Assembly: GCA_965116495.1 (NCBI GenBank)
Contig: OZ220696.1
Location: 320,001 to 384,000 of the forward strand
Reading direction: 5' to 3'
Source: Gammaproteobacteria bacterium
GTDB lineage: Bacteria > Pseudomonadota > Gammaproteobacteria > Eutrophobiales > Eutrophobiaceae
Length of the DNA stretch: 64,000 nt
Shown: in pieces, positions 54,826-63,665 of the stretch
Numbering within the stretch: the stretch's first letter is position 1
Layout: every line of letters starts with the position of its first letter
The notes under the pieces: model-generated
Database searches by the model: none
Told to the model about the DNA's origin: nothing
What the model saw: only the letters and a program-made list of their open reading frames with translations
Program-made: the position numbers and the translations under genes

Positions 54826-55851
54826 TCAGTTTCTCAGCAATGGCATGACCTCAGCCCCGAACCGCTGCAGTTCTTCCAGCGTGGGATGAAACTGCAGCAG
54901 GAACGTCTCGATGCCCAGCGACTCAAACTGCCGCAAGCGTTCGGCAATCATTTCCGGTGTGCCCACCAGTCCTGCCATCGTGCCGCCGTTGGTGCCCACT
55001 TTTTCCTGGTCATGGGGCTGTACCTGGTGCATTACCACTTGTTTGTCTGCCCCCTTGATTTGCATGTGGCGTAATGCCAGCAGGCGCTGGAATTCCTCGT
55101 TTGCCGCGGTCTCCGTTTCCCGGCAGATGACAAACCCGCCCATCCCGAAGCGAATCGTACGGCCGTGTTTTTGCGCCCGCTCCTTCATGTTGGTCACGAG
55201 TTCCGGAAATTGATCCGGCGGCCTGCCGTTCATGACAAAAATATCGGCGGCCCGCGCACCCAGGGCCCGGCCCTGTTCCGATTCGCCGCCGATGTAGATC
55301 GGGATGTGCGGCTGTTGCACCGAGCGCGGGGCAATGGAGGCGTTCTTTATCCGGTAGTACTCACCGTCGAAACTGAAATTGTTACGGGTCCACAGGCCCC
55401 TGAGGATATCGATGTATTCAGCGGCACGGGCGTAGCGATCATCGTGCGCCAGCACCGGCACGCCAAGCATCTCGTATTCAGGTGGCCACCAGGCAGACAC
55501 CAGGTTTATCGCGAAGCGGCCCCGGCTGATTTGGTCGATACTGTTCGCCATTTTTGCGATAACACCGGGTGCCCGCAGACCGGGTTTTACCGCCGCGATG
55601 ATTTCGATTCTTGACGTCAGTGCGGCCAGCCCGGCCGCGCTGGTCCAGGCATCGACCATATCCAGCGTCGCGCCAATGGGATGTATGAAGTGCTCGGCAA
55701 GCAACAGGGTGTCAAATCCCAGTTGTTCCGCCAGCAGGGTCGTCTCCTTCACGTATTCGTAGGAGGCCGTACCCTGATCATGGGCATCGGTCATGATCCA
55801 GTTACCGTAAACCGGCGGCCAGAAACCAAGTCGCATTGCGCTCATATCCAT
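54826..55851 (-). CDS. LLM-class flavin-dependent monooxygenase (SsuD/SfnG-like)
   Basis: AEQLGFD, AKMANSIDQISRGRFAINLVS, HDDRY, YIGGES and LVGTPE motifs. Confidence 0.88.
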   Translation of the reverse strand: MDMSAMRLGFWPPVYGNWIMTDAHDQGTASYEYVKETTLLAEQLGFDTLLLAEHFIHPIGATLDMVDAWTSAAGLAALTSRIEIIAAVKPGLRAPGVIAKMANSIDQISRGRFAINLVSAWWPPEYEMLGVPVLAHDDRYARAAEYIDILRGLWTRNNFSFDGEYYRIKNASIAPRSVQQPHIPIYIGGESEQGRALGARAADIFVMNGRPPDQFPELVTNMKERAQKHGRTIRFGMGGFVICRETETAANEEFQRLLALRHMQIKGADKQVVMHQVQPHDQEKVGTNGGTMAGLVGTPEMIAERLRQFESLGIETFLLQFHPTLEELQRFGAEVMPLLRN

Positions 55852-56008: not shown

Positions 56009-58276
56009 ATGAAGGGGAACCATGTCCCCGTCCTGAAAGATCTGGTGCTGGTAGGCGGTGGGCATGCTCACGTCACCGTGTTGAAAAAGCTGGGCATGAA
56101 ACCCATGCCGGGTGTACGCGTGACGTTGATTTGCCGGGATTTGCAGGCGCCATATTCCGGCATGTTGCCGGGGTTGATTGCCGGACACTATACGTTTGAC
56201 GAAGCGCATATTGACCTGGTTCCCTTATGCCGGTTTGCCGGCGCGCGGTTTTTTCACGATGAAGTGGTTGGCCTGGACACGGAAAATAAAAGGCTGCTCT
56301 GCCGTGACCGGCCGGACCTGGGTTACGACGTGCTGTCAATTAACGTCGGCTCAGCCCCTGATATCTCTGCCGTCCCCGGCGCTGTTGCCAATGTAACGCC
56401 GGTCAAGCCCATCGATGGTTTTGTCGACAACTGGCGCAGCCTGTGTGAGCGGATATTGACACGCCGGGGTGGTGTGCGGATCGGCATCGTCGGCGCGGGA
56501 GCGGGCGGCGTTGAGTTGACGCTTGCGGTGCAGTACCGGCTGAAACAGCTACTGGCCGGGAAATGGCCGGACAACGCCGACCCAGAATTTCACCTGTTTA
56601 CCGATGCCGCTGATGTCCTGGTCACACATAATCGATTTGTGCGCGCCAAATTTCGACGCGTTCTTGCCGAGCGGGATATCAACGTCCATACGGGACACGA
56701 GGTGGTCGAAGTCCGGCCCGGCGCGCTGCAATGCGCCAACGGCGCAACCTTTAACCTGGATGAGATCCTGTGGGTGACCATGGCCCGTGCCCAGCCGTGG
56801 CCGGCAAAAGCCGGTCTTGATGTTGACGCACAGGGATTTATCAAGGTCAGCGATACGCTTGAGTCCGTGTCCCATCCGGACATCTTTGCGGCCGGCGATA
56901 TCGCCCACATGGTCAATCATCCCCGGCCCAAATCCGGCGTGTTTGCCGTTCGTCAGGGGCCGCCCCTGTCATTGAATGTCCGGCGCAGGTTACTGGGCCG
57001 GCGCCTGAAACCCTTTTTCCCGCAAAAAGAATTTCTCAGCCTGATTTCCACCGGGGATAAATATGCCGTCGCATCACGCTCCTGGTGGGCGCTGGAAGGA
57101 CACTGGGTGTGGCGCTGGAAAGACTGGATAGATCGCCGCTTCATGCGCAAGTTCAACCAGCTTCCGGATATGAAAGAACAGGTTCGGCAGGATATTCCAC
57201 GCGGTCTGGTTGACGAGGACGCGATCAGGGAGATATCTGCCATTGCCATGCGTTGTGGCGGCTGCGGTTCAAAGGTGGGCGCTACGGTGCTTGAAAACGC
57301 ACTGGCAGGCCTCGAACCGGTTTCCCGGGATGATGTGCTCATCGGCCTGCGCGAGCCTGATGATGCTGCCGTGGCGAGTGTGCCTGACGGTAAGGTAATG
57401 GTGCACACGGTCGATTCCTTTCGGTCGTTTCTCGATGATCCCTATATCTTCGGCCAGGTCGCGGTAAATCATGCGCTGAGTGATCTATACGCGATGGGTG
57501 CGGAACCACAAACGGCACTGGCTATCGTGACCGTCCCCTACGCGGATGAAAAGAAGGTTGAGGAACTGCTTGCGCAAATGCTGCAGGGCGCCCTCAAGGT
57601 ATTGAATGAGTCAGGCACCGCGCTGGTCGGCGGGCATACCAGCGAAGGGGAGGAGTTGTCCCTGGGTTTTTCCGTGAACGGCCTGATTGATCGTGACAAA
57701 ATCCTGCACAAGAGCGGCCTGCGCGCAGGCGATCGAATCCTGTTGACCAAGCCCATCGGTACCGGAACCCTGTTTGCTGCCGACATGCGTCACAAGGCAA
57801 AAGGGCCATGGATTACAGCCGCCCTGGACAGTATGCTGCAATCAAACCATGAAGCAGCGGGGTGCCTGTTCGCGCACGGGGCAACTGCGTGCACGGACGT
57901 GACCGGCTTCGGCCTGCTGGGACACCTGGTGGAAATGATTAAACCATCCCGCGTTGATGTCGAGATAGACCTGGGCGCTATCCCATTCCTGGACGGCGCG
58001 GAGGAGACGGTTGCAGCCGGCGTATTCAGTTCATTACAGCCCCAGAACCTGCGTTTGCGCCGCGCCATCCAGGATGTTGAAAGTGCATCAAGGGATCTGC
58101 GCTACCCGTTGATATTCGATCCGCAAACTTCAGGCGGACTGCTTGCCGGTGTCCCGGAAGAGCAGGCCGATGCCTGTCTCGGCGAATTGCGCAAGCTGGG
58201 CTACACCCGCACTGCGACTATCGGCAGGGTGCTGCAGGAGAGCGATCACCTGGAGCCGGTGAAGTTAGTATTCTGA
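56009..58276 (+). CDS. selD: Selenide, water dikinase (SelD/SenC) with N-terminal pyridine nucleotide-disulfide oxidoreductase domain
   Basis: N-terminal LVLVGGGHAH...YSGMLPG; C-terminal MRCGGCGSKV, DDAA, HALSDLYAMG, GGHT, TDVTGFGLLGH and DPQTSGGLL. Confidence 0.93.
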   Translation: MKGNHVPVLKDLVLVGGGHAHVTVLKKLGMKPMPGVRVTLICRDLQAPYSGMLPGLIAGHYTFDEAHIDLVPLCRFAGARFFHDEVVGLDTENKRLLCRDRPDLGYDVLSINVGSAPDISAVPGAVANVTPVKPIDGFVDNWRSLCERILTRRGGVRIGIVGAGAGGVELTLAVQYRLKQLLAGKWPDNADPEFHLFTDAADVLVTHNRFVRAKFRRVLAERDINVHTGHEVVEVRPGALQCANGATFNLDEILWVTMARAQPWPAKAGLDVDAQGFIKVSDTLESVSHPDIFAAGDIAHMVNHPRPKSGVFAVRQGPPLSLNVRRRLLGRRLKPFFPQKEFLSLISTGDKYAVASRSWWALEGHWVWRWKDWIDRRFMRKFNQLPDMKEQVRQDIPRGLVDEDAIREISAIAMRCGGCGSKVGATVLENALAGLEPVSRDDVLIGLREPDDAAVASVPDGKVMVHTVDSFRSFLDDPYIFGQVAVNHALSDLYAMGAEPQTALAIVTVPYADEKKVEELLAQMLQGALKVLNESGTALVGGHTSEGEELSLGFSVNGLIDRDKILHKSGLRAGDRILLTKPIGTGTLFAADMRHKAKGPWITAALDSMLQSNHEAAGCLFAHGATACTDVTGFGLLGHLVEMIKPSRVDVEIDLGAIPFLDGAEETVAAGVFSSLQPQNLRLRRAIQDVESASRDLRYPLIFDPQTSGGLLAGVPEEQADACLGELRKLGYTRTATIGRVLQESDHLEPVKLVF

Positions 58277-58350
58277 AGTCAAAGACTATTGTAGAAGGTT
58301 AAGATTAGGGGATAAGGGCACAAATCAAGCTTGGGTGGTATGTGTCGAGT

Positions 58351-59532
58351 TCATTGGGTATGATTGGCAAGCTCCCGCGCCATATCGCCTACACTGATTA
58401 CCTCAACGCTCTCTGTTTTCAGGTAGCGCTCCTGTCCGGAATAAACGATAAAGGAGCGTTCGGGTTTAATATCCGCTCGTGCGTGATAGAAGCCTTTTTC
58501 AAGCCGAGGCGCCAGGCCTCGCTTGATTTCAACAGCCCAGAAGTGACCGCCGGGCATTTCCAGAAGCAGGTCGATTTCTGCGCCTGCCGCGCTACGGTAG
58601 AAGCTCGCTCTTACCCGATCAGGGGCGTGGTTAAGAAGGTTTTCCAACACGAAACCTTCCCAGCTTCCGCCAGCAACGGGATGACCGAGTACACTTTCCT
58701 GGTTGTCCAGTCGCAGCAGCGCATGAACGATACCGCTATCACGCACGTAAATCTTCGGAGATTTGACCAGTCGTTTGCCAAAGTTTGCATGGAAAGGTGG
58801 TAAGCGTCGTACCAGCAGCAGGTCGACCATTAAATCGAGATAGCGCATTATGGTTTTTCCATCGACTGCAAGCGCGCGGGCAAGTTGCGCCGCGTTAAAC
58901 AGGCCACTTTGTAAGTGTGCCAGCATCGTCCAGAAGCGGCGCAAGGTTTCTGCCGGAATCCTGGGTCCCAGTTGAGGTACGTCGCGCTCAAGGTAAGTGC
59001 GGATGAAGCTCTCCCGCCATATGGCGCTGTCGGCATCGCTATCTGCCAGAAAACTGTTGGGAAAACCACCCCTGGTCCATAGTTTTCCGTAATCAACTTC
59101 GTCAACTTCAAGAACGTCCAGAGGGCTGAGTTCTACAAAGACAATGCGGCCGGCCAGAGTCTCACCTGATTGCTGCAGGAGGTCGATGGAGGCTGATCCC
59201 AATAGCAGGAAACGCCCTGCATTCAGATTTCTCATTCTTCCCTTATCTATCAGGCCGCGCAGTGCCTGAAACAGGTCAGGACTGCGCTGGACTTCATCCA
59301 GGATCACCAGTTTGTCTTCATGCGCTGTCAGGTACGCGACGGGGTCGGCAAGTTTTTCGCGGTCGTGTCCCGCTTCAAGATCAAGGTATATGGCTTCACG
59401 GTCCGTAAGACCCAGTTGCGCGATGTGCTCAGCCAGAGTTGTTTTACCGGTCTGGCGCGGACCGAGCAGGGCAACAGCCGGAAATTGTTTCAGGCGGGAT
59501 AATATTGTCTGTAGTTTATGGCGATTTATCAT
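58351..59532 (-). CDS. AAA_14/DUF4143 ATP-binding protein
   Basis: GPRQTGKT, LDEVQ, GETLAGR, RGGFP, KSPKIY.RDSG and EIDL motifs. Confidence 0.92.
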   Translation of the reverse strand: MINRHKLQTILSRLKQFPAVALLGPRQTGKTTLAEHIAQLGLTDREAIYLDLEAGHDREKLADPVAYLTAHEDKLVILDEVQRSPDLFQALRGLIDKGRMRNLNAGRFLLLGSASIDLLQQSGETLAGRIVFVELSPLDVLEVDEVDYGKLWTRGGFPNSFLADSDADSAIWRESFIRTYLERDVPQLGPRIPAETLRRFWTMLAHLQSGLFNAAQLARALAVDGKTIMRYLDLMVDLLLVRRLPPFHANFGKRLVKSPKIYVRDSGIVHALLRLDNQESVLGHPVAGGSWEGFVLENLLNHAPDRVRASFYRSAAGAEIDLLLEMPGGHFWAVEIKRGLAPRLEKGFYHARADIKPERSFIVYSGQERYLKTESVEVISVGDMARELANHTQ

Positions 59533-59571
59533 CCTTGCAATTATGGCATGTTATGCCGAATATGCAAGGAT
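59531..59571. promoter_or_regulatory. Inverted repeat over the ATPase start (possible operator)
   Basis: atccttgca-attat-ggcat...atgcc-gaata-tgcaaggat. Confidence 0.4.
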
Positions 59572-59643
59572 AAATCCGAGTCTCTCGTTAGAATTAAGGA
59601 GTATGGAAAATTGTCAGCAAATACGTGTTGTAAATACTTGTAT

Positions 59644-60594
59644 TCAAAGATTATCCAACAGGGTTTGCCACTGCCTGCTCTCCCGTTCCGGGGTGAACAG
59701 GTATTTGCGTTCGTTTCCATGCTCGTGCAGGCGTTGCAGGAAGTTTTGGTCGGTTTCCGCCCGTTGTAACAGGGCGCATAATCCCCCGGTGTTTTCTACC
59801 GGGTAATAACCGGGATAATCCTCACCGAGCAGGCCGACGTTGCCGTCGATATCTGAGGCGATGACGGGCACACCTGCTACCAGAGCCTCGGAAATGACGT
59901 TGGCGCCGCCTTCCATGATCGAGCTGTGCACCAGTGCGTGCGTCTTCAAAAACTGCTCTCTTACCTGCCAGACGCCGACCTCGCCGCGCCAGTGATAACG
60001 GGGGTTTATCTCCATCTCGGCGCGCGCCTGTGCGGCCCATTCGTCGTTATGGGCCTTGCCGAGATGGATCACGCGCAGGCGGGACTGTTCCGGCAAGGTC
60101 CGGGCGGCATAGGCAGCTCTGAACGGGTCTTTTTCCTCCCGTAAATGACCGACCACACAGACATCGAAGGTAAGTATTGACGGACTGCGTGCGCGTTTCA
60201 ACGGCACTGCCGATTGATGGATCACGTGCAGTTTCTCCCGGTATGGTTCCGGTATTGCCCGGTACACCAGGTCGTGCAGGCATACCAGTGCATCAGCCAT
60301 TTCCATGGAACGCAGGGTTTCCTCCGGATGGCTGTGCTGGAAGCGGTAGATATCCGTACCGCTCAGGGCAACCACCAGGGGGCGCCCGGGGAACTGTTGG
60401 CGGTATCGTGCTATCGATGGGGCGCTGCGCCACGCGTGTATCGCTACCATTATATCGCCCGGCGTCCCGTCCCAGTCGGATTGAACAGTTATCCTGTGGC
60501 CGATATGCCGTAACAGCCGCTCCCAACGGGTGGCGGTCACGCGATTTCCCGTTTTCGATTGTTTTTTTGCAGGGGTAATCAGGATGATCTTCAT
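59644..60594 (-). CDS. senB: Selenosugar synthase SenB (glycosyltransferase) of selenoneine biosynthesis
   Basis: MKIILITPA...GNRVTATRW, AIHAWRSA, SGTDIY, GHLREEKDP and MEGGANVISEA motifs; lies between selD and an EgtB homolog. Confidence 0.88.
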   Translation of the reverse strand: MKIILITPAKKQSKTGNRVTATRWERLLRHIGHRITVQSDWDGTPGDIMVAIHAWRSAPSIARYRQQFPGRPLVVALSGTDIYRFQHSHPEETLRSMEMADALVCLHDLVYRAIPEPYREKLHVIHQSAVPLKRARSPSILTFDVCVVGHLREEKDPFRAAYAARTLPEQSRLRVIHLGKAHNDEWAAQARAEMEINPRYHWRGEVGVWQVREQFLKTHALVHSSIMEGGANVISEALVAGVPVIASDIDGNVGLLGEDYPGYYPVENTGGLCALLQRAETDQNFLQRLHEHGNERKYLFTPERESRQWQTLLDNL

Positions 60595-60648
60595 ACTCTT
60601 ACTTTAAGCTACAATATTCATGATGCAACCCCCAAACAGAACAGGGCA

Positions 60649-60699
60649 GGGGACAGATTTAAGCATGCCCCTGCATGTAGTAAGCAGGGGTCTGTCCCC
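60649..60699. repeat. Expanded REP-like element between senB and senA
   Basis: ggggacaga...tctgtcccc arms enclosing cccctgc...gcagggg; flanked by catgatgcaac at 60619-60629 and 60731-60741. Confidence 0.6.
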
Positions 60700-60731
60700 G
60701 GGTGCTCTCCACACTTTAAGCGACAAAAACC

Positions 60732-62048
60732 ATGATGCAACAGGTAAGCAGTAATTATTTGAAGGAAATCATGACGGACGCCCATAGCAGGACCCTGGAA
60801 CTGGTCGCCGGCCTGGATAAAGAGCAACTGATTGGGCCGAAGTTGCCCATCGTCAATCCGTTACGCTGGGAGATCGGCCACGTGGCCTGGTTTCATGAAA
60901 AGTTCATCCTGCGCGACCTGTATGGCCGCGCCCCGCTGCTGGCAAACGGTGACGCCATCTATGATTCCATCGCCATCCATCATGAACAGCGCTGGGACCT
61001 ACCGTTGTTGAGCATGCAGGAGACGCTGGATTACATCGAGAACGTCCTCGATGACTGCCTGTCGCTGTTGCCGGACGGTGACGCGGACCCGGAGCAGAGT
61101 TACATATACCGGTTTTCCACCTACCATGAAGATATGCATACCGAGGCTTATTGCTGGTCGCGCCAGACCCTGGCCTATCCGAAGCCTTCGTTTGCAAATG
61201 CGCTGAGACCGGAAGATACGGATACCGGAGCCTGGCCCGGGGATGCGGCTGTCCCGGGAGGGGTATTTTTCCCGGGAGCTACCGAAACAACGCCGTTTGT
61301 CTTCGATAACGAAAAATGGGCGCATGAAGTAACCGTCGAACCGTTTCACATGGCAAAAGCGCCGGTCACCAACGCTGGGTTCATGGAATTTGTCAATGCG
61401 GGGGGGTATCGATGCCGGGAATTCTGGTGCGACGAAGGCTGGGCCTGGCGCGAGCAGGCAAATGCAGAACATCCGGTGTACTGGACTGCCGGTGAACGGG
61501 GAGAATGGCGGTTGAGGCGGTTTAATGAGACCGTGGAAATGCCGCTGCATCAACCTGTCATTCATGTTAACTGGTACGAGGCCGACGCGTATTGCCGCTG
61601 GGCAGGCAGGCGTTTGCCGACCGAAGTGGAGTGGGAAGCCGCAGCACTGGGCGAACCTGCGCAAGGCAATAGCAAACTTGCCTTGAACAAACGCAGCTAT
61701 CCATGGGGAGAACAGTCGCCGGATAGACGGCAGGCCAATCTTGATGGCCGTGCGCTGGGATGTATCGACGTGGCTGCCTTGCCTGCGGGGGACAGCGCGT
61801 TCGGCTGCCGGCAGATGATCGGCAACGTATGGGAATGGACCGCGACCACGTTTGCCCCGTTTTCCGGGTTCTCGCCGGATGCCTACAAGGAATACTCAGA
61901 GCCGCTGTTTTATGACACCAGGGTATTGAAAGGCGGCACCTGGGTAACCCGAAGCCGCATGATCACGGGCCGGTACCGTAATTTTTTCACCCCGGACCGG
62001 CGCGACGTGCTGGCAGGCTTCAGGACCTGCGCGCTTTCTTCAAATTAG
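60732..62048 (+). CDS. senA: Selenoneine synthase SenA (EgtB homolog; DinB plus FGE-sulfatase domains)
   Basis: NPLRWEIGHVAWF, HEDMHTE (SenA-type rather than EgtB HEQQHQE), FDNEK, RLPTEVEWE, GNVWEWT, YRNFF and GFR motifs. Confidence 0.85.
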   Translation: MMQQVSSNYLKEIMTDAHSRTLELVAGLDKEQLIGPKLPIVNPLRWEIGHVAWFHEKFILRDLYGRAPLLANGDAIYDSIAIHHEQRWDLPLLSMQETLDYIENVLDDCLSLLPDGDADPEQSYIYRFSTYHEDMHTEAYCWSRQTLAYPKPSFANALRPEDTDTGAWPGDAAVPGGVFFPGATETTPFVFDNEKWAHEVTVEPFHMAKAPVTNAGFMEFVNAGGYRCREFWCDEGWAWREQANAEHPVYWTAGERGEWRLRRFNETVEMPLHQPVIHVNWYEADAYCRWAGRRLPTEVEWEAAALGEPAQGNSKLALNKRSYPWGEQSPDRRQANLDGRALGCIDVAALPAGDSAFGCRQMIGNVWEWTATTFAPFSGFSPDAYKEYSEPLFYDTRVLKGGTWVTRSRMITGRYRNFFTPDRRDVLAGFRTCALSSN

Positions 62049-62270
62049 TTGCTATACGGCGCGGTCCTTTCAATGATCTTGAATACTATGATGTGCCTTC
62101 CGGCAAGAAGAAAAAAGTCCCGGTTGCATTCACACTCTGGGGCTCTCAATTTGAAGAAGGGACATTGTGCCGGATCGGTATATTAAAAAACTAATTTAAT
62201 ATTAATAAGTTAAGAAAGACATTGAATGTTCAATATTAGATATTTATCACCTTGAGGATTAAATTGGGGA

Positions 62271-63665
62271 ATGAACAGTGACAAGCAACACCTGAGAAGC
62301 CTGCCGTCGGTAGATCGCGTACTGCGCGAGACGGTCCATCTTACCGAACGATGGGGACATGAGCGTGTCACGGCGGCAATCCGCAATGAGCTTGAACAGA
62401 TGCGAAATAACCCGGAAGCGTTGGACACTGCCGACAAGACATCATCATTAAGCCATGTCGTGGCTGCCGTTGAAACTGAACTGGAAAATGCCGCGCAGAG
62501 CAGTCTGGTCAGCGTATTCAACCTAACCGGTACGGTATTGCATACGAACCTGGGCCGCGCATCACTCCCCGACAATGCATTGGAAGCGGTGCAGGTCGTG
62601 GCGCAGTCACCGTCCAACCTGGAATATGATTTGCAGACCGGGAAACGGGGCGATCGTGATGAACACGTCGAACGCCTTATCCGTGAACTGTGCGGCGTGG
62701 AAGCGGCAACGGTGGTGAACAACAATGCAGCCGCGGTACTGCTGGTGTTGAATACGCTGGCAAAGGGGTTGGAGGTCCTAGTTTCCCGGGGCGAACTGGT
62801 CGAGATCGGCGGTTCATTTCGCATCCCGGAGATCATGCAGAGTTCAGGATGTGTCCTGGTCGAGGTCGGTACGACCAACCGTACCCACCTGAAGGATTAT
62901 AAAAATGCCGTAAACGATAAAACAGCGTTGTTGCTCAAGGTACATGCGAGCAATTATCAGATCCAGGGCTTTACCCGCAGCGTTGCCGAATCAGAGCTGG
63001 CGCAATTAGCCCAACGCTACAGTTTGCCGTTTGTTGTCGATTTGGGCAGCGGTAACCTGGTCGACTTTCCCGCATTCAACCTGCCCGATGAACCCACCGT
63101 GGCGCACACGGTGAAGAACGGCGCGGATATCGTTACGTTCAGTGGCGACAAGCTGCTGGGCGGTCCCCAGTGTGGCATTATCGCCGGTAAACGGGAATTG
63201 ATAGCCAGGATCAAGAAGAACCCCATGAAACGGGCCCTGCGCGTCGACAAGATGACGCTGGCTGCCCTGTTGGAAGTATTCAGGCTCTATCAGGACCCGT
63301 CCCGGTTGGCGGAAAAACTGCCGACCCTTACATTCCTGACCCGGCCGGCTGCCGAGATACGCACCCAGGCAGGACGGCTTGCTCCCAAGGTAGCAGAAAC
63401 GTTGGCGCCCCGTTATGAAGTCGCGGTTAGCGAATGTCACAGCCAGGTGGGCAGCGGCGCACTGCCGGTTGATACGCTACCCAGCTATGGTTTAAGGATC
63501 GGCGCGGCGGATGAGTCGGATGAAGCGATCAGGCAACTGGCCGAGTCCATGCGCCGGCTGGCTGTACCGGTCATCGGCCGCATCAACAAGGGCGCCTATT
63601 TCCTGGACCTGCGGTGTCTGGATAGGGAGGAAGAATTTATTGCCCAGCTTGAACACATGAAATAA
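62271..63665 (+). CDS. selA: L-seryl-tRNA(Sec) selenium transferase
   Basis: NLTGTVLHTNLGRA, VNNNAAA, SRGELVEIGGSFRIP, GTTNRT and FSGDKLLGGPQ motifs. Confidence 0.96.
   Translation: MNSDKQHLRSLPSVDRVLRETVHLTERWGHERVTAAIRNELEQMRNNPEALDTADKTSSLSHVVAAVETELENAAQSSLVSVFNLTGTVLHTNLGRASLPDNALEAVQVVAQSPSNLEYDLQTGKRGDRDEHVERLIRELCGVEAATVVNNNAAAVLLVLNTLAKGLEVLVSRGELVEIGGSFRIPEIMQSSGCVLVEVGTTNRTHLKDYKNAVNDKTALLLKVHASNYQIQGFTRSVAESELAQLAQRYSLPFVVDLGSGNLVDFPAFNLPDEPTVAHTVKNGADIVTFSGDKLLGGPQCGIIAGKRELIARIKKNPMKRALRVDKMTLAALLEVFRLYQDPSRLAEKLPTLTFLTRPAAEIRTQAGRLAPKVAETLAPRYEVAVSECHSQVGSGALPVDTLPSYGLRIGAADESDEAIRQLAESMRRLAVPVIGRINKGAYFLDLRCLDREEEFIAQLEHMK

Follow-up and report, generated by a model that had tools for sequence, protein, structure and literature searches.

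The locus described here raises the question of whether a single selenophosphate synthetase (SelD) can supply both a small-molecule and a protein route of selenium metabolism. It is found in a 64,000-nt stretch (the window) of contig OZ220696.1 from Gammaproteobacteria bacterium (family Eutrophobiaceae; assembly GCA_965116495.1, positions 320,001 to 384,000). The source genome, labelled G000, is a single contig of 4.34 Mb that was scored 99.5% complete, and the window corresponds to G000:C1:320001-384000. Genes for selenoneine biosynthesis (senA, senB and a fused selD/senC) lie here beside selA, which encodes selenocysteine synthase. The locus very probably represents a sen cluster joined to selA in this genus, where the one fused SelD likely supplies selenophosphate to SenB and SenA (predicted selenoneine) as well as to SelA (predicted selenocysteinyl-tRNA).

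Five open reading frames were confirmed at the positions initially called, and none is spurious. Gene calls were scored against curated NCBIfam cut-offs, with Pfam and PADLOC used for an AAA ATPase. The + strand at 56009-58276 encodes a 755-residue fusion of an NADH dehydrogenase-like flavoprotein to SelD, here termed Ndh-SelD (TIGR03169, 500.7 with a cut-off of 310; TIGR00476, 302.5 with a cut-off of 125). The predicted selenosugar synthase SenB (316 residues; TIGR04348, 417.4 with a cut-off of 300) is on the - strand at 59644-60594. The predicted selenoneine synthase SenA (438 residues; NF041186, 482.9 with a cut-off of 420) is on the + strand at 60732-62048, and SelA (464 residues; TIGR00474, 597.7 with a cut-off of 267.9) follows on the same strand at 62271-63665. 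Thus senA, senB and selD all fall within ~5 kb of senB, the distance that defines a sen cluster in the 2022 preprint (10.1101/2022.04.13.486033). The initial annotation had assigned senA, senB, selD/senC and selA, including a fusion with a Cys active site, a SenB-type glycosyltransferase and an EgtB homolog with the sequence HEDMHTE as SenA; the family scores and the retention of catalytic residues bear this out.

In the fusion, residues ~10-385 have an NDH-2-like (type II NADH dehydrogenase-like) flavoprotein fold and residues ~414-755 make up SelD. The active site is of the cysteine form, C416-G-G-C419-G-S-K422, with TGT and TGC as the Cys codons. In an alignment to Escherichia coli SelD (3U0O), C419 corresponds to C17 and K422 to K20, and D452, D469, D492 and D630 also align; we take the E. 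coli positions to be the catalytic Cys and Lys and the metal-binding sites. SelA has the motif SGDKLLGG, which contains K294, presumably the pyridoxal phosphate lysine. The fusion does not reach the cut-off of TIGR04369 (fusion_not_SelD; 494.4 vs 700). A structure predicted from an 89-row alignment has a mean predicted local distance difference test score (pLDDT) of 89.6 and a predicted template modelling score (pTM) of 0.90, with residues 410-418 around C416 at pLDDT <50. The model matches type II NADH dehydrogenase (root-mean-square deviation ~2.6 A, ~394 columns), sulfide:quinone oxidoreductase and SelD folds. CxxC is present at the SelD site in 89/89 aligned fusions, among which no cysteine other than C416 and C419 is invariant. 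At the position of E. coli SelD N87 all 89 aligned fusions have His (H488), a possible signature of the fused family. A homolog search with the fusion returned 7999 scored candidates of 415-1322 residues, every one of them at E<=1e-50.

Comparison with the Variovorax protein also favours the SenB assignment. SenB retains N17, T20 and E228 (N20, T23 and E231 of V. paradoxus SenB) and the catalytic K155 (K158), together with H53, R56, T80, D81 and R152. It deviates at T83, which is S78 here, and in EGGAHV, which is EGGANV. The roles of the SenB residues in sugar binding and catalysis are taken from excerpts of PMC10891094; the other papers on selenium enzymes and clusters are likewise cited here from excerpts.

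Two other readings of the EgtB homolog have to be weighed against selenoneine synthase. It might be an OvsA-type enzyme, such that the cluster would make 5-selenohistidine or ovoselenol. The best sequence matches in the PDB are to 8UX5, an OvsA-YNF mutant (310 bits), and 8U41, wild-type OvsA (300 bits), followed by EgtB-I (250 bits) and V. paradoxus SenA (215 bits). Because V. paradoxus SenA is outscored by OvsA structures, OvsA identity had to be excluded, and ovs clusters of aquatic Gammaproteobacteria are described as having senBC as well (PMC11030361). The same paper sorts SenA, OvsA and EgtB enzymes by a composite motif, given for SenA as xNEH--HRHxHYYN(F/Y)(F/Y)R. The query matches this at 15/15 residue positions (V41, N42, E47, H50, H84, R87, H132, M135, H136, Y385, Y388, N417, F418, F419 and R423), where H50/H132/H136 are the predicted non-heme iron ligands, Y385 the predicted catalytic residue and Y388/N417/F418 a predicted hercynine-type pocket. 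By alignment, these last three are the residues of the M401Y/Q430N/A431F substitutions reported to turn OvsA into SenA (PMC11030361); OvsA has M/Q/A there, and 8UX5, the best match, is itself the YNF mutant with SenA activity. The query motif ends in HYYNFFR and not in the OvsA-type HYMQAYR. In addition, an OvoA-type N-methyltransferase (TIGR04345, used as a stand-in for OvsM) was not found in the genome (best 23.8 bits vs a cut-off of 170), while egtD is present and its occurrence tracks that of senA among relatives. An OvsA-type enzyme is therefore very improbable. A 681-residue gene with an FGE domain was considered as a possible OvoA and rejected, being by inspection a PEGA-like/FGE protein.

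Slightly less probable still is a sulfur EgtB that makes ergothioneine, with selenium entering by promiscuity only. A second EgtB-type gene was not found in the genome, so this is the sole EgtB-like gene where egtD is present, and it scores 327 bits with the EgtB model TIGR03440. That score is below the EgtB cut-off of 360, whereas the SenA cut-off is exceeded; the OvoA model TIGR04344 gives 157.8 (cut-off 400). The EgtB type I motif xSDH--RRHQHYYNWDR is not present, and in place of the thiol-binding pair Arg87/Asp416 the query has H84/F419. Such a replacement by H/F is described as a signature of all SenA, and SenA gave no ergothioneine from thioglucose, in excerpts of 10.1101/2022.04.13.486033. 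Neither egtB nor egtC is beside egtD among the open reading frames listed. A SenA tree, a quick IQ-TREE run with 94/166 aligned rows (those dropped were the majority of the 'other'-motif representatives and alternate outside loci), places the query among SenA-motif proteins: the genus is a clade (support 100) within an alphaproteobacterial SenA-motif group (99), away from EgtB-I and from the single OvsA-motif row. Grouping with canonical EgtB, part of what the initial annotation had named as a possible refutation, was not seen in this tree. By its motif and scores the EgtB homolog is a predicted SenA. The placement also suggests, with no formal test applied, that the cassette came from Alphaproteobacteria.

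The remaining components of both routes are found elsewhere in the genome; the initial annotation had seen no egtD, selB or selC in the window. The gene egtD is solitary (G000:C1:3629083-3630213, family match at 3629098-3630000; 341.8, cut-off 290.9) and aligns to histidine-specific EgtD and retains the pocket Met and Glu, presumably with the roles these residues have in that enzyme. The genes selB and tRNA-Sec (selenocysteine tRNA, selC) are adjacent at G000:C1:2055435-2057526. The latter is the single default-score ARAGORN prediction and was confirmed by Rfam, relaxed scoring yielding noise; a tRNA search of the 64-kb window found none. Ndh-SelD is single-copy, with no second selD found in the genome, nor were selU and yqeB found there. 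A heuristic TGA read-through scan of the genome, which may miss other selenoproteins, gave four convincing genes with an in-frame TGA: two AhpC/TSA genes with UxxC (TGA at 3,256,862 and 1,572,601) and two genes of the NF041238 AhpD_rel_CFYUT family (TGA at 407,954 and 189,802; 475 and 427 bits, cut-off 175). Sec-containing formate dehydrogenase was not found; 0/12 molybdopterin-domain matches have an in-frame stop. Selenocysteine insertion sequence (SECIS)-like hairpins with a G-containing loop were detected by pattern, and the AhpD hairpin is conserved among relatives. The genes expected of the Sec trait (selA, selB, selD, tRNA-Sec and one or more predicted selenoprotein genes) are all present. 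All four components of the bacterial selA/selB/selC/selD machinery are present, with AhpD-CFYUT and Prx-like UxxC proteins as the predicted selenoproteins, but selA is joined to sen genes here and not to selB or selC. The genome searches turned up no second selD, egtB, selU or ovsM, and both routes are thus likely supplied by one SelD, in line with what the initial annotation had proposed.

A pathway can be outlined from family membership and conserved residues. SelD would convert selenide and ATP to selenophosphate, and SenB would place selenium on UDP-N-acetylglucosamine (UDP-GlcNAc) or a related sugar to form a selenosugar. The product of the distant egtD gene would trimethylate histidine to hercynine; SenA would then join the selenosugar to C2 of hercynine, and elimination of the selenoxide would give selenoneine. 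SelA, with the distant selB and tRNA-Sec, would charge Sec for the four predicted thiol-peroxidase-type selenoproteins. In this genome the layout is interrupted twice: an AAA ATPase gene has been inserted between selD and senB, and 24 kb of catabolic genes separate selA from ahpD.

The arrangement was compared in 22 same-genus genomes, of which 16 have senA and 17 selA. All 16 senA-bearing genomes, which reach down to 79% in SenA identity, have selA downstream of senA in the same orientation; the gaps are -11, 2, 16, 16, 16, 16, 17, 51, 58, 92, 139, 155, 225, 1780, 1841 and 6454 nt. The genus layout is selD> <senB senA> selA> <ahpD-Sec. The fused selD is convergent with senB in 13/16; two of the other loci stop at contig edges, and one genome (G005) has selD elsewhere. 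An AhpD-CFYUT selenoprotein gene converges on selA in 11 relatives and its TGA is kept in 11/11. The presence of egtD and senA is concordant in 14/15 genomes (11 with both, 3 with neither, and one fragmentary assembly with egtD only), and selB was found in 12/15. Across the genus senA and selA would apparently form one operon. One relative, G013, has selD, selA, selB and the AhpD selenoprotein gene, with selD adjoining selA; neither senA nor egtD turned up in a search of its genome, and no senB was found at the locus. Its SelD is on a long branch inside the genus clade, and the gene content is consistent with loss of the selenoneine arm. In another relative (G001) senA is found in two frames at L059:8493-9793, residues 2-311 and 311-435, either a frameshift or an assembly error.

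The pathway assignments could also hold with selA as a chance neighbour that shares neither transcription nor regulation with the sen genes. A single genus shows the link, and a common gene order is expected among kin; 0/77 SenA loci outside the genus have selA, although many of these loci do not span the full flank. In three relatives senA and selA are split by insertions (1.8, 1.8 and 6.5 kb), and selB and selC are distant in this genome. On the other hand the order is kept in 16/16 genomes, with a gap of 17 nt or less in seven, one of them an overlap; a selenoprotein gene comes directly after selA in 11 genomes; and G013 has selD beside selA without sen genes. Chance adjacency is accordingly rather unlikely, though it has a far better claim than either rival identity of the EgtB homolog.

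The joint cluster served by one SelD has some observations weighing against it. The initial annotation described selA as directly downstream of senA; it is indeed the next gene on the same strand, but an AT-rich spacer of 222 nt separates the two and leaves co-transcription in this genome only putative. In G005, selD is ~450 kb from senA, so that linkage is not obligatory. Against shuffled sequences the SECIS-like hairpins show only a slight folding advantage (z -1.7 to +0.1). OvsA and EgtB-I outrank V. paradoxus SenA among the PDB matches, and the quickly run SenA tree has weak support at its deep nodes, includes a single row with the OvsA motif and lacks any characterised SenA. The pathway as a whole is built on genes and homology, and its functions are predicted ones.

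How far the arrangement extends was examined in 77 non-genus loci among the 80 best SenA loci in GTDB, with flanks of at most 8 kb and in many cases less. The pair senB/senA is divergent in 46 of these, tandem in 19, and senB is not in the locus in 12; 32/77 have the flavoprotein domain, and none has selA. The full SenA motif is found in 15/15 extractable same-genus SenAs and in 53/66 other locus proteins, the remaining 13 deviating at one position. Ten of the variants have Thr for Asn in the hercynine pocket (L086, L088, L096, L099, L107, L115, L116, L135, L136 and L137), and three, from Rubrobacteraceae (L109, L130 and L131), have NFA in place of NFF/NFY.

Of the features that the initial annotation regarded as unusual, divergent senA and senB prove to be the majority layout among these outside loci, and an extra redox domain on SelD was described as early as 2008 (excerpts of PMC2398784; also PMC4561486) and is present in 25 of 55 SelD-positive genomes of the class. 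The senA-selA link does hold as uncommon and is a trait of this genus. No paper on a link between sen and Sec genes was found in the literature searched, which is thin on subscription journals, and the layout supplements of the preprint and PMC11030361 may show examples. The senABC cluster of V. paradoxus, one of 827 clusters catalogued in 10.1101/2022.04.13.486033, has the same senA, senB and selD/senC, the same SenA and SenB catalytic residues, and hercynine made by egtD from elsewhere in the genome. As far as the excerpts go, the present locus differs in the NDH-2-like domain at the N-terminus of SenC, in the divergent orientation of senB and senA, and in having selA after senA. V. paradoxus also has a full egt cluster, whereas no canonical egtB was found here and EgtD appears to serve SenA alone. 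The Halomonas utahensis ovs cluster with OvsA and OvsM (PMC11030361, excerpts) shares senBC, and among solved structures OvsA is nearest in sequence; the pocket here is YNF, the SenA type, rather than MQA, with no ovsM found and egtD present. The gene set is of a known type, a member of the sen family by every feature testable in its sequence, and the senA-selA link is a local, genus-level trait and not a new system.

A sample of 300 scored genomes of the class (G243 left out) contains 55 that are SelD-positive besides G000; senB was searched for in SelD-positive genomes and not in the 244 without SelD. SelD is fused in 25 and single-domain in 30. SenB is present in 11/25 fused-SelD genomes compared with 2/30 single-domain ones (Fisher p=0.0015, relatedness ignored), selA in 3/25 compared with 6/30, and selU in 17/25 compared with 25/30. 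The combination of senB and selA is found in 0/55, an avoidance that falls short of significance (p=0.096). A fused SelD accompanied by selA but by neither senB nor selU occurs in three genomes, and the fusion thus likely can feed Sec; ten have a fused SelD with selU alone, and the fusion is therefore not sen-specific. SelD without senB, selA or selU was found twice (G039:C1:50271-52385 and G145:C1:24684-25610), possibly marking another selenium trait. In a SelD tree the genus is apart from most other gammaproteobacterial fusions, and the donor is left unresolved by the tree.

Described Ndh-SelD or NADH-SPS (NADH dehydrogenase-selenophosphate synthetase) fusions have the same N-terminal NADH dehydrogenase-like domain, Cys instead of Sec, and CxxC (PMC2398784, PMC4561486, in excerpts). 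The Ndh fusion is by far the commonest SelD fusion (PMC4561486), and Ndh-SelD with CxxC made up ~40% of Cys-SelDs in ocean samples (PMC2398784, 2008). There is no structural difference from the protein described here, which in this genome is the one SelD available to the sen and Sec routes. Both papers predate the selenoneine link, and their excerpted passages draw none for the fusion. No biochemical study of the fusion's flavoprotein domain was found in the literature searched. A putative role of the NDH-2-like domain would be to reduce oxidised forms of selenium on behalf of SelD. A broader proposal is that it is a dedicated NAD(P)H-driven selenium reductase that passes selenide to SelD via the invariant C416/C419; that aquatic Proteobacteria usually have the fusion as their SenC; and that in this genus it heads a single antioxidant selenium module, which would divide selenophosphate between selenoneine and peroxidase-type selenoproteins, with no ergothioneine route. 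We consider this proposal tentative and on balance doubtful. The enrichment of senB with fused SelD was counted in its favour, as was G149: this genome, one of the two single-domain exceptions with senB, encodes the flavoprotein separately, next to selD-senB-senA. Counted against the proposal are the 14/25 fused-SelD genomes without senB, and the domain could be quinone-linked instead. A reductase role in the usual aquatic SenC would explain the ~40% share of Ndh fusions among ocean Cys-SelDs.

Several insertions have altered the locus. The 393-residue AAA_14/DUF4143 ATPase (58351-59532, - strand; Pfam) is placed by PADLOC in PDC-S01, a candidate defence family (294 bits). Its gene has 17 other matches in this genome and a third-position GC content (GC3) of 0.54, compared with 0.65-0.67 for the selenium genes, and had been noted initially as an unusual intervening gene. 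It does stand between selD and senB; no match was found in any of the loci of 16 relatives, and it is a lineage-specific passenger outside the selenium module rather than a feature of it. The same junction in five relatives holds toxin-antitoxin-like pairs or transporter-like genes, by inspection. Between selA and the AhpD selenoprotein gene there are 23.8 kb, a ~24-kb block at G000:C1:384,000-407,400 with, by inspection, Rieske oxygenase, protocatechuate 4,5-dioxygenase-like, hydroxybenzoate hydroxylase-like, TonB receptor, P450-like and transposase-like genes. The first genes of this aromatic-catabolism block also come after selA in G014, G015, G016 and G022.

In 9/15 relatives whose locus includes senB, the start codons of senB and senA are 25-28 nt apart, so close that each of the divergent promoters would necessarily extend into the coding sequence of the other gene. 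The spacer here (60595-60731) is stretched to 137 nt by an inserted palindromic repeat of a genome-wide family, whose 12-mer has 67 exact and 167 degenerate copies in the genome (hairpin z -1.8). A promoter scan showed no excess (6 vs 5.7 +/- 2.4 in shuffles); terminator-like sites number 14 vs 8.0 +/- 3.2 in shuffles, with none in the senA-selA spacer.

Some neighbouring genes can be mentioned. A luciferase-like monooxygenase gene (SfnG-related, below cut-off; 54826-55851) is divergent from selD here and in seven relatives. The tRNA-Sec gene is followed by Fic-like and HipA-like genes (G000:C1:2057435-2060956, by inspection), which suggests an integration site. Near egtD (G000:C1:3633543-3636471) are four tandem, near-identical open reading frames of ~190 residues with QTDRQMK-type repeats and nuclease-like C-termini.

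As an annotation the locus changes little, adding one more candidate selenoneine producer to the >800 known clusters. It does provide a clean natural case where one SelD must serve the small-molecule and the protein selenium routes, a combination seen in 0/55 other SelD-positive genomes of the class. The case also redirects attention to the flavoprotein domain of the SelD fusion, which was described in 2008 and is abundant in the sea. Should this domain indeed act as a selenium reductase for SelD, the source of selenide in such bacteria would be accounted for.

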